A stretch of 64,000 nucleotides of DNA, taken from the IMG/VR virus record IMGVR_UViG_3300022910_000005, positions 1 to 64,000 of that record, one strand, 5' to 3'. The position numbers and the translations under genes were made by a program. Shown here piece by piece: positions 9,537 through 58,790 of the stretch; position 1 is the first letter of the stretch; every line of letters starts with the position of its first letter. The stretch comes from a virus. The notes under the pieces were generated by a model, which made no database searches, had not been told where the DNA came from, and saw only the letters and a list, made by a program, of their open reading frames with translations.

Positions 9537-9624
9537 CTGTCACAGGTGTCACAGGCAACTTATTAGTTTTCTAGCAGATTTTGCCTCGCAGGGAACGAAT
9601 CTAGAGCCTGTGACACCTGTGACA
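9537..9624. repeat. 88-bp origin-like element copy 1
   Basis: TGTCACAGGTGTCACAG / CTGTGACACCTGTGACA inverted arms around an AT-rich core; 5 mismatches to the copy at 45617. Confidence 0.9.
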
Positions 9625-42996: not shown

Positions 42997-45561
42997 TCAA
43001 TCCATCTCGTCCCGCTTGAACCGCAGGCCACGGAACACCCGGGCGCGCGCCGGGAGCGGCGGCTGGGCCGACGAGAACGTCACGTTGGGAGCCATCGGCG
43101 GCCGGGAGATGTCCGAGGAGGCCGTCCGCACCTGGCCCTCCGTCACCCCGGCCGAGCGGACCAGTTCATGCACCCGGAACCGGCCCAGGAACGTCTCGCT
43201 GCTCCACTTCGAGTGGTTCTGGGCTACCAGGAAGTTGACGAAGTCGGTGAACAGATCCTGCCGGGCGACCATGCCGTCTGGGTCCACCTCCAGCCGGTCC
43301 ACGAAGTAGGCCATGATCCGGTCCGCCTCCATCTGCCAGCCCTTCACCGCCTCGGACACCTCCAGCGGCCGACGCTCCACCTCCACCAGCATCGGGTCCG
43401 CGAAGTAACGCATCGCGCCCTCCACCAGCCAGGTGATGATCGCGTCATGCTGATCGTCGGTGTTGTCGCGGATGCGCCGCTTCAGCGTCGGATCGCCGAC
43501 CCGGTCGTTCTCGGCCTCCGGCTTCTCCTTGAAGGTGTACGGGAAGTCCACCAGCAGCAGCCGACGCCATGTGCCCCAGTCCACTTCGGCCACCGACGGC
43601 TTCGAGTTGGACGTCACGAACATGCTGTGGCTGGCCGGGAAGGTGATCGGGTTCTGGTGCAGCATCCGGGCCGTGATGTAGCCGGTGTCGGTGATCCGCT
43701 TGATCTCCTCCACCGAAAGCGCGTGCGACTCAGGCAGTTCCTCGATCAGCGCGAACCGAACGCCCCGCAGGCTGGCCCGGTCCGGCGTCGCTCCGGTGCC
43801 CTGGCCCTTGGAGATCAGCGTCGGCTGGGCCATGTGCGCGTAGTCGCCGAGCGCCGGGAAGACGCCCTCCGTGGTGTACGCGGACTTTCCGTTGTTGCCG
43901 GTGCCGACCAGGAAGATCGCGTCCTTGGCGTTGTGGCCGGTGGCCGCCTGCCCCATCCGGATCTGCATGTAGTCGGCCTGCTCCGGCGGCAGGGCCATCA
44001 GCGCCTTGTCCCAGTCCGGATGCCGGAAGCCCTGCCGGTAGCGGCCGTTCGTGACCTTGGTGAAGTACAGGTCCGGGTCATGCTTGGAGAACTTGCCGGT
44101 CCGCAGGTCGACCACGAAGTTCGGCGTGTTCAGCAGTTCGGCGTGCGCGTCCAACTGCGCCGGGTCGGCGAACACGCCGTCGATGATCGCCAGGGTGTTG
44201 CGGATCGCGTTCATCTTGGAACGGGCCTGGAACGAGCGGTACGCCTTGGCCAACTTCAGGTACTTGTCGTCCTCGGTCTTCTTGAACTTGTCGACCATCG
44301 CCCGGAACTGCTTGGTGTAGAAGCGGGCGATCATGTTGTCGATGGCGTCCTCAGAGACTGGTGCCCACCGGCAGCCGTCCCAGCGGTGCCAGCCGACGCC
44401 GTCGGCGTGCAGCACCCGGGTGCCCATCTTCTCGGCCAGGTGCTGCGCCTGCCCGACGTCCGTGGCCCAGTCGGACAGGGCCTGCGACTCCTTGTCCTCC
44501 GGCACCGGGGGAGCACCGAGCGGCTGTGTGCCCTCAGGAGCCTCCAGATCCTCAGGCGTGACCATCTGCTCGGGATCGGCCACGATCGTCGCGTAGGCGG
44601 ACGTCCCGGCGGCCTGGGCGGGCACCGCGACGGCGGCGCTCGCGGACTTCGTGGGAGCGCCAGGGTTGATCGGCTTCTCCCAGGCCCGCTTGTTGGCCAT
44701 GCCGTCCTTCACTCCCCTGATGATCGTCGAGTTCATCGACGTCATGTCCGCGTTGCTGCGGAACGTCCAGCCAGCGATGGCGTCCAGCAGGCGGCCGATC
44801 ACCTCGTCCTCGTCCAACTGCCCGGCCCCGACGTACTGCCCGCACCAGAAGGCGATCCGGCTGGCCGTCGCGTTCCCCTGCCCGTCCGGGGCCGCCTCCA
44901 ACTGCCCGGCCAGGTCTTCGAGCCGGTCGAGCACCTCCTGCTCGGCCGCGATCGGGCCGGACTGCACCCGCTCCGGCCGCTGGACGTCCTTGCACATCTC
45001 GATCAGGTGCTCCGGCAGGTACATGAACGGCATGTCCTTGAACAGCCGGTACTGGCCGGTGCGGGGAAGGCCGGTCTTCGGGCTGATCTCCGTCACGACG
45101 GACGGCGGGGCGATCACGTAACCGTTGCCCCGGGTGTCCACGTCCGGGCCGATGCCACGCCCGGCCGCCCGGCCGCTGGTGTTGCGCAACTGCATCCCTT
45201 CCGGCATCAGGTACCAGAAGTGCAGGCCGCCGGTCCAGGACTGGACGGTGTACGTGTCGACGAAGCCGTGCTCGCCGCAGATCTTCGCCCAGGTCTCGCC
45301 GCCGACCTTGCCCTTCTCCTGGTCGGTGTCCACGTCGACCATGTAGAGCCCGGACGCGGCGGCCGAGACGCCGACGTTGGCGTAGGTGGCGTCTCTCCAC
45401 ATCCGTTCGATGATCGCCGGGTCGCTGGTCGCTTCCAGGTGGCCGTTCGATCCGTTGAGCGGGGCCTTGCTACGCGGAGTGAGCGGGAAGACCTTCAACC
45501 CCCGGCCAGCCAGGTCCAGGGCGGCCTTCTTGGTGTCTCCAGCGTCAAGTTGATAGTTCAA
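42997..45561 (-). CDS. bifunctional Prim-Pol / D5-P4-type SF3 primase-helicase
   Basis: VFPL..K.P, ANVG, VDVD, GGLH, DTRG.GYVIAPPS; LNTPN..VDLRTG; GTGNNGKS; WRRL. Confidence 0.92.
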   Translation of the reverse strand: MNYQLDAGDTKKAALDLAGRGLKVFPLTPRSKAPLNGSNGHLEATSDPAIIERMWRDATYANVGVSAAASGLYMVDVDTDQEKGKVGGETWAKICGEHGFVDTYTVQSWTGGLHFWYLMPEGMQLRNTSGRAAGRGIGPDVDTRGNGYVIAPPSVVTEISPKTGLPRTGQYRLFKDMPFMYLPEHLIEMCKDVQRPERVQSGPIAAEQEVLDRLEDLAGQLEAAPDGQGNATASRIAFWCGQYVGAGQLDEDEVIGRLLDAIAGWTFRSNADMTSMNSTIIRGVKDGMANKRAWEKPINPGAPTKSASAAVAVPAQAAGTSAYATIVADPEQMVTPEDLEAPEGTQPLGAPPVPEDKESQALSDWATDVGQAQHLAEKMGTRVLHADGVGWHRWDGCRWAPVSEDAIDNMIARFYTKQFRAMVDKFKKTEDDKYLKLAKAYRSFQARSKMNAIRNTLAIIDGVFADPAQLDAHAELLNTPNFVVDLRTGKFSKHDPDLYFTKVTNGRYRQGFRHPDWDKALMALPPEQADYMQIRMGQAATGHNAKDAIFLVGTGNNGKSAYTTEGVFPALGDYAHMAQPTLISKGQGTGATPDRASLRGVRFALIEELPESHALSVEEIKRITDTGYITARMLHQNPITFPASHSMFVTSNSKPSVAEVDWGTWRRLLLVDFPYTFKEKPEAENDRVGDPTLKRRIRDNTDDQHDAIITWLVEGAMRYFADPMLVEVERRPLEVSEAVKGWQMEADRIMAYFVDRLEVDPDGMVARQDLFTDFVNFLVAQNHSKWSSETFLGRFRVHELVRSAGVTEGQVRTASSDISRPPMAPNVTFSSAQPPLPARARVFRGLRFKRDEMD

Positions 45562-45616: not shown

Positions 45617-45705
45617 CTGTCACAGGTGTCACAGCCAACTTATTGATTTTCTAGAGGATTTTGCCTCGCAGGGAACGAATCTAGAGCCTGTGACACCTGT
45701 GACAG
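45617..45705. repeat. 88-bp origin-like element copy 2, directly upstream of the primase-helicase
   Basis: same orientation as 9537-9624. Confidence 0.9.
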
Positions 45706-45849
45706 TAGCCCATCCCTCCAGGTCAGAGCAACGGTGCCGATTCTCTTGTTGATCTTGATACGAACCCTGAGACGTATCACGGTGCGCGACCGGCGGGGCG
45801 GGCGTGCCACTGGCCGGGCTCTGCGTGTGACAGGCGTCGGTGAAGCGCT

Positions 45850-46356
45850 TCACAAGGTGTCCAGCCGAAGGATGACCGGCGGCGTGGGGTGCGCTCGCCG
45901 TCCCATCCGGATCGTCTGCCAGGTGCCGGAGCGTCGCTGCCGGGGGTCGTCCTCCGCGCCGATCGGGAAGCCGACCAACTGGTTGCTGTTGTCGACGATC
46001 GACTGGTTGCGGTCCTTGTAGGTGCTGCCGGGCGGCATGTGGATCACCTGGACGGCGTGGCCGAACGGCAGCCACCATCGGTCGGTGAACGATTCGTTGG
46101 CGGGCACGATCACCAGGTGGTGGCGGCCGGGGAACTTCTCGGCGCAGTATTCGCCGACGATGGTGTCCAGTCCTCGGCAGGCTCCGGTCACGAAGCCGTG
46201 CGCGTACTCGCCGAGCCGGTCCAGGTGGCCGTACAGCCGGTCGACGGTACGTGCGTCGGGCGTGAAGCGGCTGCCGGTGAAGCCGAGGATCAGTTGTGGT
46301 CGGTCGGGTGCCGGACCGCTAGATGTAGTGTTCACTTCTTGACCGTACGCGGACAT
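45850..46356 (-). CDS. SLOG-superfamily (YspA/DprA-like) protein
   Basis: GFTGSR, TGAC.GLD, RNQSIVD, SGTWQTI. Confidence 0.75.
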   Translation of the reverse strand: MSAYGQEVNTTSSGPAPDRPQLILGFTGSRFTPDARTVDRLYGHLDRLGEYAHGFVTGACRGLDTIVGEYCAEKFPGRHHLVIVPANESFTDRWWLPFGHAVQVIHMPPGSTYKDRNQSIVDNSNQLVGFPIGAEDDPRQRRSGTWQTIRMGRRAHPTPPVILRLDTL

Positions 46357-46424
46357 GCAGGTGTCCTTCCGGAGATAACGAGGCCCCCGCCACTGATGAT
46401 GGCGGGGGCCTGACCTTACGCCGC

Positions 46425-46679
46425 TCAGACGACTGGCGCGTTCCGCTCCGGCTTGATGACGGCCAGAGCCCTCGCCACGGTCTCGTCGAACGTCTGCCCC
46501 TCGGGCAGCGCGGTCTCGTCGGCCGGGTCGAGCCCGAACAGCATGTTGATCCCGGCCCGCACGACCTCGGCCTTGCCCTCGATCGCCGGGTCGGCCGCGT
46601 CGGTCGCCTTGATCAGTTCGTGCTGAAGACCGGTCATCACCGAACCGAACTGGTCGGTGTACTTGCGCGCCTTACCCAC
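46425..46679 (-). CDS. putative ribbon-helix-helix DNA-binding protein
   Basis: basic N-terminus, short strand, KAEVVRAGI helix; own promoter. Confidence 0.4.
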   Translation of the reverse strand: MGKARKYTDQFGSVMTGLQHELIKATDAADPAIEGKAEVVRAGINMLFGLDPADETALPEGQTFDETVARALAVIKPERNAPVV

Positions 46680-46735
46680 TCGGGCCTCCTGCTCATCGTG
46701 CTCTGAGCAGGGCCGGATGCCCTGCTGACAACGAG

Positions 46736-46777
46736 ATCTTATGGGACTTGTCATTCGATTGTCAACTGTGCAAGACT
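46736..46777. promoter_or_regulatory. overlapping divergent promoters with tandem TTGTCA sites
   Basis: minus TTGACA-N18-TAAGAT; plus TTGTCA-N18-AAGACT-N6-ATG(46784). Confidence 0.7.
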
Positions 46778-46783
46778 CCGTGC

Positions 46784-48731
46784 ATGACAACGCGACCTGA
46801 GCCTGCGCGGCTCGACACCGTCCGGGGCACCACTCGGCAGATCATCGGCCTGACCCGCAACCTCGGCAAGAAGGCCGTCGAGGACATCGACCTCCAGCAG
46901 AAGGAGGCTGTCGTCGTCCTGGAGTCGGTCCGAGTGCTGATCGCTTCCTACGAGTCGCTGCTGGCCGTCTGTTCCGACAACGGCATGGTTGGCCAGGTGC
47001 TCGCACCTGAGCAGGAGGACTACCGTGCGGCCAAGCACTACCTGCGCATCCTGGATGGGCTGTACGGCCCGAAGGCGGCGAACTCATGAAGATGACCACC
47101 AACGGCAACTACGCGCACAAGCGCGGCCGGTGGACCGAGGTCGACCGGGTGAAGAACAAGAAGGACGGCATCGACTACCTGAAGTTCCAGTTGGGGTACA
47201 TCGAGGGCCTTTCCGACGACCGGTACCTGGAGATCCTCAAGGAGACCGGCGTCACCGTCACATTCGAGGAGGACTGATGGACCCGAACGCCTGCCTGAAG
47301 TACCTGCGCCAGGCCGTCGCTGACGGCGAGGCGGACCGTGCGCTCGAACTGCGCGAGGCCCTGCACCTGTGGGTCGCTCGTGGTGGTTTCGAGCCGGACG
47401 ACCCGAACTGGCGCTCGGCATGAGCGACACCTACAACCTCGGCTACCTGCCGACCGGCCGCAAGGCACACCTGTTCTACGGTTCGCTGGCCGGGTCCGCC
47501 GTCTGTGGGATCTTCAGCCCGAACGTCTGGATGGGCACCGGCAGCCAGGCCGAGTACGAACGGGCGAAAGCCCTGCCCCCATGCCGCCGCTGCGCGAACC
47601 TCGTTGCAGCGGGCCACATTTAAGGAGAAGTGATGGCAAGCAAGGACGTTCTGATGGTGCCCTGGTCGACGGGGCTGACCTACTCCGGCCAGAGGAACCT
47701 GCGCGTCGCCGCCGGGAGCCTCCTGGAGTACGCCCGGTACAACCCGGACTCCGGGTTCTCGGACGAGTCCGTCGCCTGGCGGCCGAACGAGGTCTTCTCC
47801 GGCTCGCTCCGGCTGGAGGACATGGAGCGCGGCCGGTCGGCCGCCCGGTTCATCTGGCGCTCGGACGACGGCCGGACGTATCCGATGTTCATGTCCGGCC
47901 TGCTGGACCTGGTCAAGACGCACGGCATTCAGCCGGGCGGCCTCGTCCACACCCGCTGGACCGTCGCGAAGCGTGGCAGCAACTTCGGACTGGTGGTGGC
48001 GAAATGAGCAACTGGAGGGACGTCCATCGGGGCTTCATCGTGAAGGACAAGACCGGCCAGGAGTGGCTGGTGCTGGAGCGCAAGCCCGGCCAGGTCTTCA
48101 CGATCAGCGCGCCAGGTCGCAGCGAGTACACCGGCCCGTTCCAGGGTGAGGTGGAGATCGTGAGACGGCCCGCGCCGCAGTCCGATCCGCGTGTCCAGGA
48201 CGTCATTGCGCGCGGTCTGATCGCCACCAAGTTCGGTGGCGTTGAGATCGGTAAGCAGGGGAAGGACAAGACGCAGCCGTGGATGACTCCGGTCGACTTC
48301 ACGGACCCGGGCGCGATGCTGGCCCACCTGCGGATCTTCCACAACGGCATGAGCGACGACCCGACCCTGGCCGGGCTCGTCAAGTATCACGCCACGCTGC
48401 ATCACCCGAAGCAGAAGGCGGCGGATCTGTATGAGCCGCACGTCCACACTCCCGACTTCGACGAGTTGTGAGCAACGGAAAGCGTTGTGGGCGAACGGGT
48501 AAGGTCAGATTCCGGGATGACGATGAGGCGAAGGCTGCACTGAGCCGCATCAGGTCCGACCGGGGAGAGCGGCGGGCGAAGGTGCCGGTGCGCTGGTACG
48601 ACGACTGCGAGTACTGCGGTGGCGTGCATCTGACCAGCCAGGAGTACCACAACGCGAACGGGACGATCTGGGAAGAGGAGGACGGCCTGCACGGGTTCCA
48701 TCCGCTGCCGGACGCCGACCGGGACTACTAA
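46784..48731 (+). CDS. operon of about 7 small hypothetical genes
   Basis: mostly start-stop coupled ORFs at 46784, 47086, 47277, 47420, about 47633, 48004, 48468. Confidence 0.6.
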
Positions 48732-48743
48732 CTGAACGCAGCC

Positions 48744-48811
48744 GCCCGCCACCTCGTAGTAAGAGGTGGCGGGCTTCTGCGTTGACAAGCGGTTGTCAAG
48801 TCTGTTACCTT
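48744..48811 (+). promoter_or_regulatory. terminator followed by the operator-promoter of the transfer operon
   Basis: GCCCGCCACCTC...GAGGTGGCGGGC then TTGACAAGCGGTTGTCAA at 48782. Confidence 0.8.
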
Positions 48812-48843
48812 GATAGCAAGTTAGCAACCACGGGAGGAACCCC

Positions 48844-49137
48844 ATGAACCACCTGCACACGCTGGCCGTGCTCGCGGCTGCCCCCAACATCAGCGTCGAC
48901 AAGATCAAGCAGTCGGCGCTGATGATTCTCACCGCCCTGATCTGCATCGGCCTCGCCTACATGACCCTCAAGGTCATCTGGAAGGACACCGACGACGGCG
49001 ACTACAGCAGCGTCGCGAAGAAGGTGCTCACCTCGATCATCGGGATGATCCCCTTCGTCATGGCCGGATCGCTGGCCATCGCCGCCGGGTGGGCGACCGC
49101 GCTGCTGAGCCTGCTGACCGGGCTGGTCTCGAAGTGA
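48844..49137 (+). CDS. pilin-like (VirB2/TrbC-like) 2-TM protein
   Basis: 97 aa, two long hydrophobic helices, first gene before virB3/virB4-like genes; GGAGG RBS. Confidence 0.55.
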   Translation: MNHLHTLAVLAAAPNISVDKIKQSALMILTALICIGLAYMTLKVIWKDTDDGDYSSVAKKVLTSIIGMIPFVMAGSLAIAAGWATALLSLLTGLVSK

Positions 49138-49946
49138 GCCCCGTGCAGCGGAACGACGACGACGGACGCCAGATCCGGCAGCCGTGGCTGGGCGCGAAAG
49201 GCGCACGCTGGCCGATGGACTGGACCTACGACGAGTGGGCGCTCGGCCTGTTCGGGTTCATCGTCGGCGGGACGCTGATCACCTGGGTGGTCCCGGCTGC
49301 CGTCATGGCGTTCATCGTGATCCGTTCCGCTGCACGGTTCATCTCGATCCGCAACAACCCGCACGCGCCCCGCAAGACGTACCTGCTCGTCGTGGCGATG
49401 ATGACGACGCTCTGCCTGATCCTGTCCGTCAACCCGATGTTCTGGCTCAAGCCGATCTTCCTGCCGTTCGCGCTGGTCGCGTCGCTGTTCATGCCCTCGC
49501 GCACCGTGAAGGCGTACGGCAAGTACGTCGGCTGGAACCGGCCGCTGTCCTACTGGATCGCCATGCCGTTCCGGATCGCCCGGGGGCCGCGCCTGGTGCC
49601 CACCGACACGATCAACCCGGCGATGCTCGGCATGGGCCTCGACCTGGAGAGCCTCGACCGCGATGACACGGCCGACCTGGTGCCCGGCCGGATCGTCACG
49701 ATCCCCCGGCTGAAGGCCCCGGCCAGGAAACCTGCGCCGCAGGCGCTTGCCCCCAAGCCCGTCAAGGCGACCATCACCAGCGCACCGAAGAAGACCGCCC
49801 GCGTCGCCCGCACCCCGCTGACCGAGCGCCGCCTCGTCGCACCGGGCGCTCCGGTCCGCCACCGCACCCGCAAGCAGAACCTGATCTACCGCACGCCGAC
49901 CGGCCTGATGGTCTTCGGCACCGAGTACCGGATGGAGAGCCGCTGA
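49134..49946 (+). CDS. VirB3/TcpE/PrgI-like membrane protein
   Basis: TM helices; immediately upstream of VirB4-like gene. Confidence 0.5.
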   Translation: MSPVQRNDDDGRQIRQPWLGAKGARWPMDWTYDEWALGLFGFIVGGTLITWVVPAAVMAFIVIRSAARFISIRNNPHAPRKTYLLVVAMMTTLCLILSVNPMFWLKPIFLPFALVASLFMPSRTVKAYGKYVGWNRPLSYWIAMPFRIARGPRLVPTDTINPAMLGMGLDLESLDRDDTADLVPGRIVTIPRLKAPARKPAPQALAPKPVKATITSAPKKTARVARTPLTERRLVAPGAPVRHRTRKQNLIYRTPTGLMVFGTEYRMESR

Positions 49947-52633
49947 TGGGCCTGTTCGCCGCCCCCAAGAAGACGACCTGGACGACACCGGTCCGCAAGA
50001 CGATCGCTCTCGCGCCGACGGCCAAGCAGGTGGTGCGCAACCTGATCCTGCTGAAGGACGGCAGCGTGCTGGCCGGTTACCGGATCGGCGACGCACGCTG
50101 GGACTTCACCGGCAAGGACGCGAAGATCATGCGGATGGACCAGGACGCGGACGTGTTCGCCGCGCTGGTCGGCCGGTCCTACCACGAGCGGGTCACCACC
50201 CGCCCGCACCCGGTCGCGACCTGGGCCGGGAACCTCGACAAGCGGACGCCACGCCCGACGCCCGACATCCACACCTGCGACCTGAGCGCGGGCCTTTCCC
50301 AGGGCGACCTGCTGAACGGCCGGTGCGGCTGCGAGACGTGGGGCCGTCACCTGATCCGCCAGCAGGACGTCATCGCCCGTTCCGGCATGAACGACAAGAT
50401 CGTCTTCCGCTACTTCGGCCTGACCGTGAAGGTGTCGCCGCGCACCGACCTTCGCAAGCAGATCAACGAGTTCGTGAAGACCGGCAAGGCGTCCGGCGTC
50501 GTGGCTCGGCTGATCGCCGACGAGAAGCGCGTCAGCGACATCGTGACCGGCTGGCCGGGCTCCAAGCGGATGAGCGAGTACGAGCAGGGCTGGCTGCGGG
50601 TCCGCTCGCTGTCGCCCGGCGTCATCCCCACCGGCATCCACAGCAAGGACCGGGGCGGCTGGGACGAACTGGCCCTGCCTGCCCTCGCGTCCGACACCCG
50701 GTGGGCCGAGACGCCTTTCGGCCGGACCGTGACCGTCACCTCGTTCGCCGACGGCAAGCAGGTCGAGTCGGCCGTGCGCGTGCTGACGATGGCGCGGATG
50801 GCCGACCTGAACTACCCGGAGAACGGGATGCCGCCGTGGCAGGTGCACGGCGAGTCCGTCCTGGACGCTTCCGGCCGCCCGTTCCCGGTGGAGTGGTCGG
50901 TCGTCGGCCGTCTGCGCTCCGGCGAGGAACTGGCCAAGGAGGTGGAATTCGAACTGCGGCGCGTCCAGCACGTCAAGGGCGACTACGAGGATCACAGCGA
51001 ACTGCCGCCGTCGAACGTCGGCAAGGCCATCGCCGTCGCCGTCGACACCCGCGACCAGGTCACCACCGGCCAGGCTGCTGTCGCCGCCAGGTTCCAGGGA
51101 CAGATCAACGTGATCATCTCCGGCCAGGCGACCGAGAACCTCACCGCCGAGCAGGTGGTCGAGGAGCGGTGCGCCGCGTTCACCCGGATGTACGCCAACG
51201 CTGGCCTGCGGATGGACTTCACCGGCTCCGACAGCCAGTCGTTCATGCTGGCCAGCACGGTGCCCGGTGAGCCGTACGACCGGCTCGGCTTCCAGCGTCG
51301 CCTGCGGCTGCCGTTCCTGACGGCCGGGATGCCGAACGTCTCCTCGTCCGTCGGTGACGGCGTCGGCCCGTACCTGGGCCACACCCGGGGAGCGACCCGG
51401 CGCGCGGTGCAGCACGACCCGCACTTCGCCACGGAAGGTCTGCGGACCGGCCGGGGCCAGAACATGCACGTCGTGCTCGGCACGCTCGGTGCCGGGAAGT
51501 CCGTCGTGACCGGCTCCATCGGCTACAACGCCGTCCGCCGGGGCATCCGCACGGTCATCTCCGACCCGTCCGGCCCGCTCGCGGCGCTGACGAAAATGCC
51601 GGAGATCGCGGACGTTTCGCAGGAGATCAACCTGCTGAACGGCGCGCGGGGCATCCTGTCCCCGGCCGCACTGATCCGCGACCCGCTGCTGACCGAGTAC
51701 GACGAGCCCGGCCAGTTCGCGGAGGCCCTGGGCCAGGCGGCGGCCGAGCGGCGGGACCTGATGGTCGACATGGCCAAGCGCTGCCTGCCGGACTACCTGA
51801 TGAAGGACCAGGCCGAAGCCCGCACGGAGGCGGCCCTGCGCCTGGCCGCTCGCCAGCACGCCGAGACGCGGGACGGCTGGAAGCAGACCGACACCATGTG
51901 GGACCTGATGCGTCCGCTGAAGGACAGCACCGACGACTGGGCGAAGGCCGTCCACGGTGCGCTGACGGACGCCTCCACCGCTCCGCTGCTGCGCCTCATG
52001 TTCCCGGAGCCGGGCGCTCCCGGCAGCATCGGGCACTACGACAAGACGCTCACGGTGATCACTACCCCTGGCATCGTGCGGGCCGTGGACGGCACGCCGC
52101 GCAAGGACTGGAACCCGCTGGAGGTCGGGGCCGACGTGGTGCTGCGCCTGGTCGGACTGTTCACCGACCGGCTGATCTACTCGAAGACCCGCAGCGAACG
52201 CTGCATCGCGATCTTCGACGAGGCCGAGTCGCTGACGGACTTCGGGCCGGGCCGGTCCATGCTGTCCCGGCTGGGCCGCGACCACTCCAAGTGGAACATC
52301 GCCGTCTACCTGGCCGTGAAAAGCATCAACCCGCAGATGCTTTCGGGGGAGTTGAAGAACTTCCTCGCCAGCGTGTTCGTCGGCCGGATGGCATCGCGCG
52401 AACCGGCCGAGGCCGCGCTGGAACTGCTGGGGCTGACCGACAAGCGGTACGCGCAGGTGCTCATGGGCCTGTCCACGTACGTGCCCGGCGAGTTCGTCCA
52501 CGCCGACGTGGCCGGGAACGTGGGGATGCTGAAGGTCGACGTGGACTACCACCCGGCCCTGAAGGACGCACTGCTGACCGACCCGACTCCGGAAGGCTCC
52601 GGCCACTGGACCCTTGAAGAGGAGATCGCCTGA
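49946..52633 (+). CDS. VirB4-like conjugative ATPase
   Basis: 895 aa; C-terminal GTLGAGKS, ISDPSG, IFDEAE, R.GR motifs; GPYLG upstream of the P-loop. Confidence 0.82.
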   Translation: MGLFAAPKKTTWTTPVRKTIALAPTAKQVVRNLILLKDGSVLAGYRIGDARWDFTGKDAKIMRMDQDADVFAALVGRSYHERVTTRPHPVATWAGNLDKRTPRPTPDIHTCDLSAGLSQGDLLNGRCGCETWGRHLIRQQDVIARSGMNDKIVFRYFGLTVKVSPRTDLRKQINEFVKTGKASGVVARLIADEKRVSDIVTGWPGSKRMSEYEQGWLRVRSLSPGVIPTGIHSKDRGGWDELALPALASDTRWAETPFGRTVTVTSFADGKQVESAVRVLTMARMADLNYPENGMPPWQVHGESVLDASGRPFPVEWSVVGRLRSGEELAKEVEFELRRVQHVKGDYEDHSELPPSNVGKAIAVAVDTRDQVTTGQAAVAARFQGQINVIISGQATENLTAEQVVEERCAAFTRMYANAGLRMDFTGSDSQSFMLASTVPGEPYDRLGFQRRLRLPFLTAGMPNVSSSVGDGVGPYLGHTRGATRRAVQHDPHFATEGLRTGRGQNMHVVLGTLGAGKSVVTGSIGYNAVRRGIRTVISDPSGPLAALTKMPEIADVSQEINLLNGARGILSPAALIRDPLLTEYDEPGQFAEALGQAAAERRDLMVDMAKRCLPDYLMKDQAEARTEAALRLAARQHAETRDGWKQTDTMWDLMRPLKDSTDDWAKAVHGALTDASTAPLLRLMFPEPGAPGSIGHYDKTLTVITTPGIVRAVDGTPRKDWNPLEVGADVVLRLVGLFTDRLIYSKTRSERCIAIFDEAESLTDFGPGRSMLSRLGRDHSKWNIAVYLAVKSINPQMLSGELKNFLASVFVGRMASREPAEAALELLGLTDKRYAQVLMGLSTYVPGEFVHADVAGNVGMLKVDVDYHPALKDALLTDPTPEGSGHWTLEEEIA

Positions 52634-54429
52634 TGTTGAAGGGTTTTCACCGCTACGTGCGGCTGGCCCAGTTATCGGTGGTGCTGATGCTGGTGGCGTT
52701 CGCACTGATCATCCACGCCGCCTCGGCCCACGCTTCCGCCCCGGCCGGGATCGACGTGCCGGGCGTGGAGGTATGCCCGAAGGAGGCACCGTTCGCGCAG
52801 ACGCCGGAGTCCGGGCTGGCCGGGCTTCTCGGTGAGCGTCCGCTGAAGATCACCACCGACAACTCCCCCGATCACATCTGGACGACGGGCGGCTTCGCTG
52901 GCCTCCAGTCGAACACCTACGACCTCGGCTGTGGCATGAACCCCGGCAACTGGGTGAAAATCACCAGCGCGCACACCGGTTCGTCGATGAGCAACTTCTT
53001 CCTGTCGGCCGGGGACTCGATGGTGTCGCTGACGGACTCGATCGACCGGCGGGCGTGGCAGCCGCAGTGGCTGCTGTCGTTCCTGGACGACTTCATGTTC
53101 CGGGTGACGGGGATGACGAACACGCTCATCCTGCTGCCGTTCCTGGGCCTGGCGCTGGCGCTGGTCGGAGTGATCCTCGTCTGGAAGTCCAACGATGGTG
53201 ACTATGCCGCTGCCGCAACGAGTGTCGGCTGGATCTTCATCGTCCTTGCCATCACGTCGCTGCTGGTGACGACGCCGCTGATCGTCGCGAAGTTCGGCAC
53301 GAGCGTCGGCTCCACGTCGGTCGCGGTGCTGAACGGCGGCGCGAACGCCTCCGACGCCGTCACCAACCAGGTGGTCAAGAACGTCGAGTACCAGGGCTGG
53401 CTGCGTCGCAACTTCGGCCCGTCGGACACGGAGGTCGGCAAGAAGTACGGGCCGGAACTGCTGGCGGCCAGCCGGGTTTCGTGGGCGGAACTGGACAAGG
53501 TCAACGCCCTGCCCGCCGACAAGCAGTCGCAGGCGCGTTCCGATCTGACGGACGCGAAGGCGAAGAAGTTCAAGGACATCGCCGCGAAGGTGAAGGACGA
53601 AGACCCGACGGCCTACAAGTACCTGACCGGTGAGATCATCGGCACCCAGGAGAGCATCGTCGAGGTGATCTTCCTGTTCATGGCGTGCGCGCTGCGGATG
53701 ATGGTGGCGATCCTGATGATCGCCTGCGTGATCAGCCTGGCCCTGATCAGCATCCTGTGGGTGCTGCTGACGCCGGTCCTCATCCAGCCGCCGTTCAAGA
53801 TGCTGGACGGGCGCACACTCGGCACCGGCCTGCTGAACGGTTCGATGCGCGCCCTGCTGTACGTCGGCGAAGCGGCGCTCGGCGCATGGCTTTACGGCTT
53901 CTTCCTCCAGGCGTGCATGGCCCCGGGCCTGAACCTCTGGTGGTCGCTGCTGCTGCTGACGATCGGCACGCTGATCGCCTGGTTCATGATCGGCCCGTTC
54001 GGCAAGTTGATGGCGATCCTGTCGCTGGGCCGGGCCGACACCGGAGCCTCCTACGTCGGCAAGGCCGTGAAGGGCGCGCTGATGGCCTGGGGCGGCGGCC
54101 TGATCGCCGGGCTGGCGGCGGCGAAGTCGGTCAACGATCACGAGGACGAGGAGCGGGCGGCGGCCCCAGAGCGGCTGTCTGAGACGATCCAGCAGCCGCA
54201 GGTCGTGCACGCCACCGTCTACAACCCGTGGGAGCACCAGATGGACGACACGGTGCGCACCGAGCACTTCCCCGACGCAGACCGGACGCTGCCGACCGGC
54301 GGCACCCCGGAACTGCCGATGTACCGGCGCGGTGCCGAACCGGCCCCGCCGCCGGACGAGACCGCCAGCCCGTACGCCACGTACGAGCGGGAAAGTTCTT
54401 CTGATGACAACGAGGGAGCGCACCTGTGA
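52633..54429 (+). CDS. VirB6/TcpH-like polytopic membrane protein
   Basis: signal-like N-terminus, multiple TM segments, low-complexity C-terminal tail; follows VirB4. Confidence 0.7.
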   Translation: MLKGFHRYVRLAQLSVVLMLVAFALIIHAASAHASAPAGIDVPGVEVCPKEAPFAQTPESGLAGLLGERPLKITTDNSPDHIWTTGGFAGLQSNTYDLGCGMNPGNWVKITSAHTGSSMSNFFLSAGDSMVSLTDSIDRRAWQPQWLLSFLDDFMFRVTGMTNTLILLPFLGLALALVGVILVWKSNDGDYAAAATSVGWIFIVLAITSLLVTTPLIVAKFGTSVGSTSVAVLNGGANASDAVTNQVVKNVEYQGWLRRNFGPSDTEVGKKYGPELLAASRVSWAELDKVNALPADKQSQARSDLTDAKAKKFKDIAAKVKDEDPTAYKYLTGEIIGTQESIVEVIFLFMACALRMMVAILMIACVISLALISILWVLLTPVLIQPPFKMLDGRTLGTGLLNGSMRALLYVGEAALGAWLYGFFLQACMAPGLNLWWSLLLLTIGTLIAWFMIGPFGKLMAILSLGRADTGASYVGKAVKGALMAWGGGLIAGLAAAKSVNDHEDEERAAAPERLSETIQQPQVVHATVYNPWEHQMDDTVRTEHFPDADRTLPTGGTPELPMYRRGAEPAPPPDETASPYATYERESSSDDNEGAHL

Positions 54430-54923
54430 TCACCTGGATGTTCCAGAGCCCCGACCGGCTGAAGCGGGTGGCGATCACCTTCGCGCTGACCTGCGTGACG
54501 CTGACGATCCTGCTGACGATCGTCCGGGTCCACGACCTGGCTTCCCACCGGCCGACCGCCGAGCCGACCTACGGGGCCACCACGGAATCGACCGCTACCG
54601 GCCTGCTGCCGCCGTCTCCCAGCCCCGAACCGGCTCCGGCGACCACGGAGTACGGACCGGCCACGCCGATCGCCCTGGAGGCCGCTCAGGCGTTCCTCCA
54701 GGGGGACCGGAGCCGGTTCGCTGAACTGGCCCAGCCGGACGTCGTCGAGTCCGCCAACGAAGCGCCCACGCCCGGCGGGCAGATCACCGCGCCCGGCCGC
54801 GTCCTGCTCGGCGGGCCGACCCAGCAGAAGATCCTGGTGCCGACCAGCGAAGGCGACCTGACCCTCACCATGATCGTCATCGACGGGGCCTGGAAGGTCG
54901 CCGGGATGGAGTACGCGAAGTGA
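54426..54923 (+). CDS. VirB8/TcpC-like bitopic protein
   Basis: single TM, Pro/Thr linker, AAQAF...W.V NTF2-like pattern. Confidence 0.5.
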   Translation: MITWMFQSPDRLKRVAITFALTCVTLTILLTIVRVHDLASHRPTAEPTYGATTESTATGLLPPSPSPEPAPATTEYGPATPIALEAAQAFLQGDRSRFAELAQPDVVESANEAPTPGGQITAPGRVLLGGPTQQKILVPTSEGDLTLTMIVIDGAWKVAGMEYAK

Positions 54924-55244
54924 GCCGGTCGCAGCGGAGGATAGAACTGGACCTGAAGTACGGAATTGTCACCATGATGATCGTCGAGGCGGCCTGCTTC
55001 GCCGTTCCGTTCTGGCTGCTGGTTGCGCTCGTCCGGTGGTGGGCGGCGTGAGCAACTGGGTGCCGCCGCACATTCCGATCCGGGACCATCCCGGGCCGCC
55101 CCGCTGCTGGATGTGCAACCGGCGGCTGCGCTGGTGGCAGATGACCACCTGCCGGACCTGCTCGCCGCACTTCCACGACTTCATGTGGCTGCACAACCAC
55201 ATGGGCCGCAACACGTTCGCCCCACCCGACCGATGGAGGAACCG

Positions 55245-56228
55245 ATGAAGATCTGGATCGCTGCGGGCGCAGCCAGCCTGGCCGGGCTCGTCGCGGTTCC
55301 GCTCGCCATCACCAGTCTGATGTTCGGCCCACCGCCGCTGCCCGCGCTCAGCATCGCCACCCAAGAGGTCTCCTCCTGCACGGTGCAGATCCCGGCCAGC
55401 GCGCGCACGGCCGGAGCACTGTCGGCCGAGCAGGTCGCGAAATATGCGTACGCGGCCGGTTTCCGTGGGCAGGACATCAACATCGCCGTGGCCGTGGCCC
55501 GCGCCGAGTCCGGCTGGCGGCCGACCGCAACCCTGCTGAACACCAACGGCAGCACCGACCACGGCCTGTTCCAGATCAACTCGATCCACGCGGCGATCCT
55601 CGCGGAAGGGAACTGGGCTGACCCGGCCGACAACGCGAAGATGGCGTTCAAGGTCTGGACGCAGGCGGGCGGCAAATGGTCCCCGTGGGTGACGTACTGG
55701 CGCGGCACCTACAAGCAGTACCTGACGGACGTCGACCCGAAACCCACCTGCACCACACCGAAGTCGACCGGCCCGTGCAAGAAGGTGAGCGGTGAGTTCT
55801 CCAACGGGCTCATCCCGGCCAGCGCGCTCTGCACCCTGTGGACCAACCGCCACCACCGCCTGCGGGCCGACGCCGCCAACTCGTTCGACGCGATGAGCCG
55901 GGCGTACATGGCGAAATTCGGTGTGCGGCTGTGCCTTACGGACTCCTACCGGCCGCTGTCCGTGCAGATCGACCTGAAGCGGCGGAAGGGTTTCCTAGCC
56001 GCGAAGCCCGGCACGTCCAACCACGGCTGGGGTCTGGCTGTCGATCTGTGCGCTCGCGGCAGCCAGGAGAACCCGCAGCCGTGGAACCGTGGCACCGAGG
56101 ACGACGTGTGGCTGCACCAGAACGCACCGAAGTTCGGCTGGGTCCACCCCGGCTGGGCTGAGCCGTCCGGCTCGAAACCCGAACCCTGGCACTGGGGTTA
56201 CAACCTCGACAAGGAGCACGCACCGTGA
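55245..56228 (+). CDS. membrane-anchored lytic transglycosylase + M15B D,D-peptidase (VirB1/TcpG-like)
   Basis: AESG...GLFQIN; SYR...PGTSNHGWGLAVD...EPWHW. Confidence 0.88.
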   Translation: MKIWIAAGAASLAGLVAVPLAITSLMFGPPPLPALSIATQEVSSCTVQIPASARTAGALSAEQVAKYAYAAGFRGQDINIAVAVARAESGWRPTATLLNTNGSTDHGLFQINSIHAAILAEGNWADPADNAKMAFKVWTQAGGKWSPWVTYWRGTYKQYLTDVDPKPTCTTPKSTGPCKKVSGEFSNGLIPASALCTLWTNRHHRLRADAANSFDAMSRAYMAKFGVRLCLTDSYRPLSVQIDLKRRKGFLAAKPGTSNHGWGLAVDLCARGSQENPQPWNRGTEDDVWLHQNAPKFGWVHPGWAEPSGSKPEPWHWGYNLDKEHAP

Positions 56229-56473
56229 GCGATCCGCTTGACCTTCTGGGTGTTGCCGCCATGCGAAAACTACGGGCCCAGCAGGAACTTGCCGCAGCGA
56301 ACGCCTCCCTGGCAGCCGCCCTGCGACTCATGGCAGCCCGGCCTGGCGAACCGAAGTGCAGGGTCGGGCAGCACGCACGGGCCTACCTCGGCCTGCATGG
56401 ATTCGGACCAGAAGAGATGACGGCGCTCGGTATTTCGGACAGCAGTGTCAGGAACATGCTCGACGCGGGGTAG
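56225..56473 (+). CDS. small hypothetical protein (possible HTH)
   Basis: GTGA overlap; LGISDSSVRNML. Confidence 0.45.
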   Translation: MSDPLDLLGVAAMRKLRAQQELAAANASLAAALRLMAARPGEPKCRVGQHARAYLGLHGFGPEEMTALGISDSSVRNMLDAG

Positions 56474-56482
56474 GCAGCGAAA

Positions 56483-56514
56483 AGCCCGGCCAGGCAACCG
56501 CCCGGCCGGGCTTC
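56483..56514. terminator. terminator between the transfer operon and the lysis genes
   Basis: identical to 17601-17632. Confidence 0.85.
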
Positions 56515-56543
56515 GTCGTGTTCGCGACCTGCCAGACGAAGGA

Positions 56544-56786
56544 TCAGACGTCAGACAGCGTGCTGGCCGAGTCCGGGTTGCCGACCTGCTTGGCCACGAA
56601 CACCTTGACGGAGTTCAGACCGGCCAGGATGATCGGGGCCGACCAGATCGGCAGATCGAGGGAGTCGATCGACAGCAGGACGGACGTCACGACACCGTAG
56701 GACGTGGTCCAGAAGATCCGCTCCAGGGCGTCCTTCATGAACTTCGGCTGACGGTACCGGGGGACGGCCGGGGTTTCGTTGGTCAC
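56544..56786 (-). CDS. holin
   Basis: 80 aa, KDALERIFWT, two hydrophobic segments, downstream of endolysin. Confidence 0.75.
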   Translation of the reverse strand: MTNETPAVPRYRQPKFMKDALERIFWTTSYGVVTSVLLSIDSLDLPIWSAPIILAGLNSVKVFVAKQVGNPDSASTLSDV

Positions 56787-56803
56787 TGGTTTTCTCCTGA
56801 GGG

Positions 56804-57835
56804 TCAGACCGAGCGGGATTCGCCGGTCGGGTTGGACGGGATCAGCGTACTCGCCAGGTCGTTGACCTTGCCTTCGATCGTGGCCAGGGAGAGCGCCGTC
56901 GCCTCGCGGGCGGCCTTCTCCTCGTCCAGCGCGGCGGTCAGCGTCACCAGCAGGTTGTAGACCCGCTCGGCGGCCGGGCCGCCCCACTTCGCGAGCCGGT
57001 CGTAGGTCAGTTCGTCGCCCAACTTCCACGGCGTGGCGCTGGGGCCGTTGTTGCTGTTCATCTGGTCGACCATGTACTGGCTGGTCAACTTGACGGACAG
57101 GTCGTCCTTGGTGAGTGCGGCCACGCTGGGCTCCTTCGGTGGGTCCGGCTTCTCGACCGGAGGCTTGGGCTTCGGGGGGTTGAGCGCGCTCACGACGCGC
57201 GGGATGACGATCGCCTTCAACTGGGCGATCCGGGCGGGACCGGGGCAGCCCTTGCCGACCGCGCCAGACCACTGCACGCCGCCCTTCACCAGCCAGCCGG
57301 AGCCGGACGGCTTGAAGCCGGTCGAATGCTTGCAGCCCTGCCGGTGGTAGGCGATCCCCCGGCGGCCGGGCTTCGTGTCCGGCACCAGCCTGGCCGGGAT
57401 TCCGACCTTGTGGCACTCGAAGTGGCTCGGGCAGTCCTTGTGGGCTTCCTTCGAGCAGAGCCAGGTCACCAGCCGGACGATCGCGTCGATCTGCTCGGGC
57501 GTCCATCCGGCGATGTCCTCGACGAGACGCGGTGCGTTGTCAGCGGTTTCGATGGAGATGACCCCCATGTTTCCGTTGAGGTTCGCGTCGGCCTTGTACG
57601 CCGTGTCGCCCCATTGGTAGACGACGCCGTTGAGGTCGGCGGCCTTGTCGCCGCCCCACTTGCCGCCGACACCGAAATGCGATTCGGTGCCGGACCAGCC
57701 GTTCTGGTGGAACATCGCGTCGGTCGACGTGAGGAAGCCGACCATTGTGTGCAGGCAGATGAAATCGTGCGACGTCATCGCCGCCTGGTGACCGGCGGCG
57801 AGCGGTCGCCACCGGGCTCGGGAGTACCTAGCCAT
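56804..57835 (-). CDS. endolysin, N-acetylmuramoyl-L-alanine amidase
   Basis: LHT, SHF, ISIET, YH, CPG motifs; Pro-rich linker. Confidence 0.88.
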   Translation of the reverse strand: MARYSRARWRPLAAGHQAAMTSHDFICLHTMVGFLTSTDAMFHQNGWSGTESHFGVGGKWGGDKAADLNGVVYQWGDTAYKADANLNGNMGVISIETADNAPRLVEDIAGWTPEQIDAIVRLVTWLCSKEAHKDCPSHFECHKVGIPARLVPDTKPGRRGIAYHRQGCKHSTGFKPSGSGWLVKGGVQWSGAVGKGCPGPARIAQLKAIVIPRVVSALNPPKPKPPVEKPDPPKEPSVAALTKDDLSVKLTSQYMVDQMNSNNGPSATPWKLGDELTYDRLAKWGGPAAERVYNLLVTLTAALDEEKAAREATALSLATIEGKVNDLASTLIPSNPTGESRSV

Positions 57836-58262
57836 CCTGTCGGTCCTTCATCTCGTCAGTCCGGGCACCGAGCCTGGTCACCTGGGCCAGCAGCGCGTCG
57901 TATCGCAGGTTCGCTTCGGCGCGTTCGGTGCGGATCTGGTTCTCCAATCGTGCCACATCGGCACGAAGTCGCTCCTGATCGAACAGCCAGCGGGCGCGCT
58001 CGGTCGCGTGCCGGGCTTCGTCGGCGATGCGCTGCGAACGCTCCTCGGCGAGCATCTCTCTCAACCGAGCCACGTCCTCGCCCAGTTCGTCGCGCGCTCG
58101 CGCGACGGTGGCGATGTTGGCGTCGACAACTCCGGCATAGCGCATTTCCTTTGGGGGTTCGGCCCGCCAGGCTCGGAAGGCGTCGTAGGCATACTTGACG
58201 CCCCCTCCTGAGAGTACCGCGAGAAACACGGTCACCCACGGGTCCGGTGTGGGGGTGGCCAT
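57828..58262 (-). CDS. TM + coiled-coil lysis-cassette protein
   Basis: N-terminal TM followed by coiled coil. Confidence 0.6.
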   Translation of the reverse strand: MATPTPDPWVTVFLAVLSGGGVKYAYDAFRAWRAEPPKEMRYAGVVDANIATVARARDELGEDVARLREMLAEERSQRIADEARHATERARWLFDQERLRADVARLENQIRTERAEANLRYDALLAQVTRLGARTDEMKDRQDG

Positions 58263-58720
58263 CAGCAGTCCTTGCGTCGGGTACGGACAATCTCCTTGAT
58301 CAACGCGGCCTCCTGCTCTTTCAGCCACCACCCCCGCAGTAGGCATACGCAGCCGACCGTGAAGAAGAACGCCGCCGTGGCCCCGGCTCGGCCCCAGGTC
58401 GACGCTCCGATCACCGCGACCGAGAAGGCCACGAGGGTCGTTGCGAACAGGTACAGACCACTGGCGATCAGCCCGAGACGCCGGGATGCGATCCCGAACG
58501 CCACGGAAGAGCCAGCCATGATCATCATTACGGCCCAGACAAGTTCCAACTTGTCCGGCAATGCTTGCAGGCTCACCGACGGAGAGTTGCCGGTGATGAT
58601 GTTCATGACGATCGCTGCCGCCCAGATCACCAGGCCCATCTCCAGGCCGTATTCACCGATCGCGTGCGGAAGCCGCCTCCTGAGGACGAACCGTCGCGCC
58701 CTTGCTCGCCACGGAGACAT
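58262..58720 (-). CDS. 4-TM membrane protein
   Basis: hydrophobic helices; typical position before the lysin. Confidence 0.65.
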   Translation of the reverse strand: MSPWRARARRFVLRRRLPHAIGEYGLEMGLVIWAAAIVMNIITGNSPSVSLQALPDKLELVWAVMMIMAGSSVAFGIASRRLGLIASGLYLFATTLVAFSVAVIGASTWGRAGATAAFFFTVGCVCLLRGWWLKEQEAALIKEIVRTRRKDC

Positions 58721-58790
58721 CAAGATCCTTCCACCACAACGATTCGAGCCTGGACCCTGATCGTATGTCAACCCGCCGGTAACGTGCGGA

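Follow-up and report, generated by a model that had tools for sequence, protein, structure and literature searches.

Can a phage that builds virions also carry a channel of the kind that bacteria use for conjugation? The question is raised by an operon on the plus strand of a 64,000-bp stretch of viral DNA (the window), which comprises bases 1–64,000 of the 80,684-bp IMG/VR record IMGVR_UViG_3300022910_000005; all coordinates given here are window positions. The operon (48,782–56,514) spans 7.7 kb, contains eight largely translationally coupled genes, and encodes a VirB4-family ATPase together with proteins that resemble other parts of a type IV secretion system (T4SS). We are highly confident that this cassette is a genuine, functional, and selectively maintained T4SS channel module of the actinobacterial-plasmid kind (like the mating-pair formation (MPF) classes FA and FATA), that it is native to and fixed in the genomes of a lineage of roughly 70–81-kb siphoviruses of soil and leaf-litter Actinomycetota, that it is under a phage-type promoter, and that an HNH-FtsK translocase encoded elsewhere in the genome belongs with it. 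From the observations below we infer channel assembly, the substrate, the timing, and transfer itself, and we estimate the probability of our whole explanation, identity and mechanism together, at ≈45%.

Proteins of the cassette and their plasmid counterparts

Genes were called by G+C content at third codon positions (GC3), followed by profile searches. The 895-aa product of the third gene matches Pfam AAA_10 (PF12846) over residues 491–870 with 68.4 bits against a cut-off of 27.5 (E 7.6e-19), and the six-frame search returns the same family at 68.1 bits. Its best NCBIfam match is TcpF, the VirB4 homolog of pCW3, at 49.9 bits against a cut-off of 1100 (E 1e-13) and in the Walker A region only, as would be expected of a distant family member and not of a TcpF ortholog. 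In an alignment of 28 VirB4 sequences, G515, G517, K518, D758, E759, and E761 are invariant. The AlphaFold2 (AF2) model, built on a 28-sequence alignment, has a predicted local distance difference test (pLDDT) score of 85, and its top Foldseek matches are full-length structures of R388 TrwK/VirB4 (8rtd, 7o43; E 1.3e-21 to 1e-18 over ≈890 columns, template-modeling (TM) scores of 0.5–0.6). This match spans both the VirB4 N-terminal domain and the C-terminal ATPase; the C-terminal domain reaches a TM score of 0.70 to 4ag5, the Thermoanaerobacter VirB4, and HerA, DndH, and TrwB follow far behind (E 1e-9 to 1e-6). Membership was settled by the fold search; against PDB sequences, phmmer and profile methods yielded nothing beyond marginal matches in the Walker A region, to TrwB and 4ag5. 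Profile and predicted structure thus assign the protein to the VirB4/TrbE/TcpF family, as a first-pass annotation made from the DNA letters had proposed. A defense-system reading was dropped, PADLOC having returned only weak P-loop similarity.

The 598-aa protein encoded next is polytopic, and the product of the gene after VirB4 on a Streptomyces plasmid is 27% identical to it over 408 aa (E 3e-32). In the ESM-Atlas it lies nearest to clusters of actinobacterial TrbL/VirB6 proteins (score 0.94–0.95, structural TM score 0.72), where the TrbL label stands on 11–18% of members, and we take this as a lead; Pfam gave no TrbL match. The 165-aa protein that follows has a single transmembrane helix, a disordered linker, and a domain modeled as NTF2-like (pLDDT 73). 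Structural alignment of this model with VIA-align gave Z scores of 10.0 for DotI, 9.8 for IcmL-like and TraM, 9.4 for VirB8 and TrwG, 9.2 for TraM of pIP501, 8.6 for PrgL, and 8.5 for TcpC, with TraE and CagV also within 8.5–10 and one of the TraM matches being that of R64. VirB8-family proteins account for 13 of the 25 top matches, or 14 if OrfG of ICESt3 at rank 42 is counted. Foldseek returned weak, generic NTF2 matches only. Because generic NTF2 proteins interleave at similar Z scores, the assignment is made at the level of the fold: the model has the bitopic NTF2 architecture of VirB8 and TcpC.

Two-domain wall hydrolases such as CwlT, TraG of pIP501, and PrgK are typical of monoderm T4SSs. 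The 327-aa product of the phage cassette is also of two domains, with Pfam matches to SLT_3 (E 4e-19) and VanY (E 5e-14), and is the dedicated peptidoglycan hydrolase of the system, an analog of VirB1 and CwlT. We placed its start at 55,245 and not at 55,023; the relatives align from residue ≈96–104 of the longer open reading frame (ORF). Directly upstream of VirB4, in the position of VirB3, TcpE, or PrgI, is the 270-aa membrane protein, whose start is taken as GTG because of the GTGA overlap with the preceding stop and the point at which the alignment of relatives begins; among ESM-Atlas clusters the TcpE family comes nearest to it (score 0.87, no more than a lead). The 97-aa protein that opens the operon has 30–34% identity to its equivalents in three related loci (L004, L016, and L017). 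Pfam, PHROGs, and NCBIfam gave no match for the 97-, 270-, 598-, and 165-aa proteins. The six genes that the first-pass annotation named are all real; its list lacked the 70-aa and 82-aa genes, and its label of "pilin-like" for the 97-aa protein found nothing to sustain it beyond two transmembrane segments. The 70-aa ORF, zinc-ribbon-like and without a PADLOC match, lies between the VirB8-like gene and the hydrolase, possibly preceded by a mini-ORF for a hydrophobic 25-aa peptide; neither has a counterpart in described T4SS cassettes.

The same arrangement is found on actinobacterial plasmids. By tblastn, homologs of the ATPase occur on 88 of them (62 from Rhodococcus, 12 from Prescottella, 6 from Streptomyces, and others) at 25–29% identity over 79–97% of the length. 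We compared two of these cassettes with that of the phage, one on the 45.8-kb linear plasmid of Streptomyces sp. NEAU-S7GS2 (NZ_CP029542.1) and one on Prescottella equi pVAPN. Both have the order small protein, small protein, ATPase, large membrane protein, small protein, and wall hydrolase, and both have a divergent FtsK/SpoIIIE gene beside the cassette. The phage shares this order, a homologous ATPase, a homologous polytopic protein (27%), and a homologous FtsK (29%). The plasmid cassettes differ in that the FtsK gene is adjacent and the hydrolase is of the NlpC/P60 or M23 type, whereas the phage encodes virions, has SLT and M15 domains in its hydrolase, and carries FtsK fused to an HNH nuclease and 26 kb away. 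The proposal that the order is that of monoderm and actinobacterial mating-pair formation cassettes is therefore borne out, with ATPase, polytopic protein, and translocase each homologous to its plasmid counterpart. Through these Streptomyces and Prescottella plasmids, the phage cassette agrees in gene order and homology with the SLP2.19-23 type. SLP2.19-23/pQC542.1c-6c consists of six co-transcribed genes that are needed for conjugal transfer of SLP2 in Streptomyces lividans, and SLP2.21 resembles the VirB4-like CmdB (PMC2782261).

Table 1. Features of the cassette, its translocase, its borders, and neighboring genes
Feature	Position	Strand	Details
97-aa protein, 2 transmembrane segments	48844-49137	+	First cassette gene; no family assigned
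270-aa membrane protein, 3 hydrophobic segments	49134-49946	+	Basic Pro/Lys-rich tail; coupled to VirB4
VirB4-family T4SS ATPase, 895 aa	49946-52633	+	Walker A GTLGAGKS 512-519, Walker B FDEAE 757-761
VirB6/TrbL-like polytopic membrane protein, 598 aa	52633-54429	+	Signal-like N-terminus, ≈6-7 transmembrane segments
VirB8-like bitopic protein, 165 aa, 1 transmembrane segment	54426-54923	+	Transmembrane helix 9-40, disordered linker, NTF2-like domain
70-aa Cys-rich (CxxC...CxxC) protein	55036-55248	+	GC3 0.93; stop overlaps hydrolase start (ATGA)
SLT_3 + VanY/M15 peptidoglycan hydrolase, 327 aa	55245-56228	+	N-terminal membrane anchor; last large gene
82-aa conserved protein	56225-56473	+	Last cassette gene; 51-55% identity in L004, L016, L017, L022
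HNH nuclease fused to FtsK/SpoIIIE translocase, 555 aa	21469-23136	+	Pfam HNH + FtsK_SpoIIIE
Hairpin, left cassette border	48735-48783	+	24-nt arms, 88% complementary; after upstream 87-aa gene
Promoter/operator-like double heptamer TTGACAAGCGGTTGTCAA	48782-48799	+	Perfect motif copy; holds TTGACA -35 box
Hairpin, right cassette border	56482-56513		10-bp G+C stem, between converging cassette and lysis genes
Prim-Pol + D5_N primase-helicase	42997-45561	-	Phage replication module; 3.3 kb upstream of operon
Lysis cassette	56544-58771	-	Faces operon; consists of the four genes below
Small holin-like gene	56544-56786	-	Lysis cassette
Amidase_2 endolysin	56804-57835	-	Lysis cassette
172-aa protein	57828-58346	-	Lysis cassette
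3-transmembrane-segment holin-like protein	58262-58771	-	Lysis cassette

Place of the cassette in the phage genome

The genome around the cassette is that of a tailed phage. CheckV gives the record a completeness of 100%, and it has no terminal repeats; G+C is ≈66% along the window, with composition unbroken at the cassette. The minus strand carries a complete siphovirus late module between 80.6 and 56.5 kb, with PHROG matches for the large terminase subunit TerL (E 3e-145), portal (4e-97), protease (4e-66), major capsid protein (4e-39), and tape measure (1e-59), as well as scaffold, minor tail proteins, and lysis genes. The presence of terminase, portal, protease, scaffold, major capsid protein, tape measure, tail, and lysis genes places the virus among siphovirus-like Caudoviricetes and agrees with the first-pass view of a virion-encoding phage. 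TerL is at most 55% identical to that of any cultured phage, the best matches being Arthrobacter phages, and all 2,012 matches are to actinophages. Relatives of the endolysin and the hydrolase are scattered among phages of Streptomyces, Brevibacterium, Clavibacter, Curtobacterium, and Rhodococcus. The remaining genome encodes a Prim-Pol/D5 primase-helicase, a DEAD-box helicase, an endonuclease VII, an exonuclease, and many ORFs without a family. Six-frame searches found no tyrosine or serine recombinase that could serve as integrase, a six-frame search for ParA/CbiA matched only the P-loop of VirB4, and a tRNA search found none. Among the genes scanned there is no partition or Rep family, and on this evidence the virus falls outside the class of phage-plasmids, which join plasmid replication and partition genes to virion genes. 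In the non-structural arm, a 762-aa ORF (27,217–29,505, plus strand) coincides with the G+C peak of the window (73.6%), consists of ≈20-residue repeats (P-A/S-G-I/L-A-S-A/G-E-A-F-G-S-A-T-V), and matches no Pfam family; it could be a repetitive surface or fiber-like protein.

The cassette is a compact transcription unit within this genome. Six of its gene junctions are overlaps of one or four bases (GTGA, TGATG, TGATG, GTGA, ATGA, and GTGA), in line with the start-stop coupling noted from the letters alone, and it does lie near the primase module. The "head-to-head" arrangement with the holin, endolysin, and tail genes had to be revised: the 3' end of the operon faces the 3' end of the lysis cassette, and the two converge. 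A TACCTT hexamer 18 nt downstream of the TTGACA box is a putative -10 element, and a GGGAGGA ribosome-binding site lies between the TTGACAAGCGGTTGTCAA motif and the first gene. The hairpin at the other border, at which Logan contigs break, resembles a minus-strand terminator with its T run. The interval first delimited for the operon thus runs exactly from putative promoter to putative terminator, because 48,782 is where the motif starts and 56,514 is where the hairpin ends. A generic sigma-70 and terminator scan gave nothing useful at the cassette borders.

The motif at the head of the operon, TTGWCAA-N4-TTGWCAA, is present in 18 copies in the window against 0.02 expected. All of these lie between 293 and 48,799, within the non-structural arm; the late genes have none. 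The copies overlap TTGACA -35 boxes. The motif looks like the operator and promoter element of a phage-wide regulon that includes the T4SS cassette, which would probably be expressed with the early or middle genes and not with the late ones. In L004, L016, L017, and L022, too, the motif precedes the cassette, irrespective of cassette orientation, which argues that the cassette forms a transcription unit of its own, controlled by the regulator of the phage. In the genome studied here and in L022 (VirB4 65% identical) it is inverted from the first gene to the 82-aa gene while the flanks keep their orientation; in L004, L005, L016–L021, L024, and L028 it is co-directional with the tail and lysis genes. 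A search for long inverted repeats flanking the cassette found none.

Since the record is a metagenome contig without terminal repeats, it might in principle be a chimeric assembly, or a prophage beside a separate integrative and conjugative element (ICE) or plasmid. We consider this exceedingly improbable. One relative (G002) is a 77,934-bp circular assembly with an exact 127-bp end overlap, and it holds VirB4 (50% identity), TerL (79%), the major capsid protein (83%), the whole late module, and HNH-FtsK. IMG/VR contains eight related contigs with VirB4 at 42–69% identity, the JGI metagenomes nine loci, and VirB4 has 35 metagenome homologs (42–88% identity) on contigs of up to 76 kb. At least 11 distinct related contigs, from different samples, have tail or lysis genes next to the cassette. 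TerL and the cassette share a contig in G002–G006, as do the cassette and the large tail protein in G003–G007, and wherever enough flank is available the cassette comes last, after tail genes, holin-like genes, and in some cases an endolysin. Both borders, upstream (45,675–52,840) and downstream (56,485–57,364), are spanned by Logan contigs from the run that is the likely source, and a Logan contig from an independent rhizosphere run (X2) bridges 55,998–56,536 to 56,792–57,118 in the same convergent orientation. Host genes were absent among the genes scanned. A circular relative, shared neighborhoods, bridging contigs, and searches that found no integrase, relaxase, or ParA make chimeric and tandem-ICE readings very unlikely; neither a faulty join nor a separate ICE came to light, and the ATPase held its place in the VirB4 family. 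In the X2 contig, which is 95–99% alike elsewhere, the small holin-like gene (56,536–56,792) is replaced by 360 unrelated bases, so the region between endolysin and cassette terminator is variable.

The cassette has also been kept under selection. Against a near-identical relative from another metagenome, the ratio of nonsynonymous to synonymous substitution rates (dN/dS) is 0.02 for VirB4 and 0.12 for both the VirB6-like and the VirB8-like protein, indicating purifying selection. Divergence across relatives is 42–69% identity for VirB4, 67–88% for TerL, and 40–79% for the tail protein. Outside metagenomes, 50,697 phage records were searched with the region by blastn and with VirB4 by tblastn, and neither search gave a match. 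Likewise, the VirB4 alignment found no relative in 185,579 species genomes, and hence no host or prophage copy among them.

Translocase, proposed mechanism, and alternatives

The candidate for the coupling protein or DNA pump of the cassette is the HNH-FtsK fusion. With the FtsK encoded beside a plasmid cassette it shares 29% identity over 379 aa (E 6e-33), and it is present in all four near-complete relatives checked. Among its 38 metagenome relatives, several lie on contigs of 54,154, 73,931, and 42,059 bp, sizes equal to those of VirB4 contigs. The homolog in a 76-kb relative (G004:C1:56545-58122) contains one in-frame TAA, which may reflect a sequencing error, a pseudogene, or a split gene. 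Two near-identical 88-bp elements, each with inverted arms of TGTCAC units around an A+T-rich core, lie in direct orientation 36 kb apart (9,537–9,624 and 45,617–45,704). One immediately precedes the primase-helicase gene and is a point at which Logan contigs break. These elements are candidates for a replication origin or for a clt- or oriT-like cis site of the FtsK pump.

In the mechanism that we propose, an infected cell would express the cassette from its phage-type promoter alongside the non-structural genes. The hydrolase would open the cell wall locally, the VirB4, TcpE/VirB3-like, VirB6-like, and VirB8-like proteins would form a membrane channel, and the FtsK-type pump would feed phage DNA through it into an adjoining cell or hyphal compartment. 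This DNA would probably be double-stranded, or nicked by the HNH nuclease, as in Streptomyces TraB transfer; the nuclease could supply either a nick or a cut. The outcome would be contact-dependent spread, independent of virions and receptors. The proposal of DNA transfer with the phage genome as substrate is tentative, and its most specific form, that of dual-route "conjugative phages" that spread both as virions and by a self-encoded T4SS driven by HNH-FtsK without relaxase or receptor, somewhat more so.

Several observations weigh against this proposal. Six-frame searches for TrwC, Relaxase (MobA), Mob_Pre, and Rep_trans at E ≤ 0.1 found none of these families, and we identified no oriT or clt site. 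The FtsK gene is 26 kb from the cassette, and solitary FtsK-like genes also occur in phages without a cassette, such as Bacillus phage B4, in whose FtsK neighborhood no T4SS cassette was found. With neither integrase nor ParA detected, there is no evident stable donor state, whether lysogen or plasmid, and a lytic phage has a short window for conjugation. The VirB3-like assignment and that of the two-transmembrane protein come solely from position and topology, and the sequence of the 165-aa protein shows no similarity to that of the corresponding plasmid protein. Moreover, the S. coelicolor chromosome carries cmdABCDEF, which encodes five membrane proteins and the VirB4-like CmdB and is paralogous to the SLP2 genes; its role is in sporulation and in the segregation of chromosomes, and it could not stand in for the genes of SLP2 transfer (PMC2782261). 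Since cmdABCDEF works outside transfer, this type of cassette is not tied to conjugation. The likeness of cmdABCDEF to the phage cassette, drawn from its description only, lies in its six genes with a VirB4-like ATPase; it differs in being chromosomal and in not serving transfer. Because no relaxase, integrase, or ParA was found, conjugation is something that we only infer. Streptomyces TraB moves unprocessed double-stranded DNA, recognized at the clt site, without a relaxase (PMC3583192); given this precedent and the HNH nuclease on the pump, the missing relaxase does not exclude DNA transfer.

T4SSs exapted for protein secretion are well known, and the channel might accordingly move proteins or effectors into neighboring cells, or it might manipulate host development (septation, sporulation, or segregation, in the manner of cmdABCDEF) and so keep the host productive. 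That relaxase and oriT were not found fits such a role, as do the precedent of cmdABCDEF, which affects sporulation and segregation and is no stand-in for SLP2 transfer genes (PMC2782261), and the early-type promoter motif of the cassette, which sets it apart from the late-gene context. Nevertheless, no candidate effector was recognized within the operon or next to it, the kind of DNA translocase that partners plasmid cassettes is conserved together with the cassette, and the nearest cassettes of known context sit on plasmids. We regard a protein-moving or host-directed role as unlikely, if deserving of serious weight. A role within the lytic cycle, as an envelope accessory for remodeling at egress, DNA entry, or superinfection exclusion, with the SLT-M15 protein as a second, membrane-anchored lysin, seems to us quite improbable. 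Most relatives have the cassette immediately downstream of the tail and holin genes and reading in the same direction, several relatives have no detectable homolog of the amidase endolysin of this genome, and M15 and SLT domains resemble those of phage endolysins and tape measures. Against these points, the genome has a full holin and endolysin set besides the cassette, the same cassette is found on plasmids without lysis genes, it retains its own promoter motif and terminator and occurs in either orientation, and VirB4, VirB6-like, and VirB8-like proteins have no known part in phage lysis.

Alternatively, the cassette could serve other DNA, as a captured plasmid module that mobilizes resident plasmids, satellites, or chromosomal DNA of the infected cell or that mainly secures its own persistence, with the phage genome itself not transferred. 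Its plasmid origin and its nature as a discrete unit, inverted at least once in the lineage, are compatible with this, and FtsK pumps of the Streptomyces type act on any DNA that bears clt (PMC3583192). However, divergence of the cassette tracks that of phage core genes, all relatives have it at the same locus, under purifying selection and with the phage's own operator motif, and it has no recombinase or att-like ends of its own; service to other DNA thus strikes us as less probable even than an envelope role. Transfer of the phage genome itself through a channel fed by HNH-FtsK is the explanation that we favor, at the strength stated above.

Relation to known systems and significance

Monoderm conjugative T4SSs have a gene order similar to that of the phage cassette. 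With the MPF-FA and MPF-FATA systems, represented by Tcp of pCW3, Con/CwlT of ICEBs1, Orf13-17 of Tn916, pIP501, and pCF10, it shares VirB4, a VirB8-like NTF2 protein, and a two-domain wall hydrolase comparable to CwlT; a polytopic protein resembling VirB6 and, as candidate coupling protein, an FtsK-family member comparable to TcpA complete the likeness. The sequence similarity to them is very remote, however, and the phage is neither an ICE nor a plasmid and has no detected relaxase. Although phage and T4SS genes have been reported on one DNA stretch before, in phage-ICE tandems in which phage DNA is moved through the T4SS (Sci Adv 2026, PMC13651849), those are two integrated elements with their own integrases and a relaxase, described by their authors as such "rather than a hybrid element" (PMC13651849). 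The cassette studied here, in contrast, is internal to the phage genome and lineage-wide, and no integrase or relaxase was found with it. A partial precedent for a phage with a contact-dependent route is the Streptomyces plasmid-phage pZL12 (Zhong et al. 2010, J Bacteriol 192:3747), which is reported to form phage particles and to undergo transfer that depends on a tra gene of the FtsK/TraB type (cited in PMC3583192 and PMC4487206). It is also reported to have ParA and ParB (PMC4487206), which were not found here, and none of the six Streptomyces plasmid matches to VirB4 is a pZL12 record.

According to a 2025 review, no conjugative phage-plasmid or prophage is known, although pZL12 offers a precedent of the TraB type. 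In the literature that we searched, neither an account of a VirB4/VirB6/VirB8 cassette in a tailed phage nor any work linking Bacillus phages to VirB4 came up. A fold search of BFVD did return VirB4-like folds from gp155/gp156 of Bacillus phage G and from Bacillus phage JL (913 aa, annotated as MsbA-like), and also from the uncultured "Siphoviridae sp. ctHip2," which is annotated with type IV transporter parts and has further proteins named conjugal transfer protein and FtsK. With such folds in catalogued phages, the ATPase by itself is not unprecedented in viruses, and annotations may understate how common T4SS-type ATPases are among phages.

Self-driven horizontal transfer is taken to follow two separate routes, that of phages and that of conjugative elements, and a lineage-wide T4SS with its pump would blur this division if DNA were moved. 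The cassette is compact, has clear catalytic residues, and has homologs on plasmids of culturable Streptomyces and Rhodococcus, and the question is thus directly testable. Were proteins moved, or the host envelope or development reshaped instead, this would still be a new viral use of a T4SS. If DNA does move, these phages would gain a route past receptor-based resistance, and models of host range and gene flow for soil Actinomycetota would change. Passage of phage DNA into neighboring cells, if true, would be a bacterial analog of viral cell-to-cell movement.

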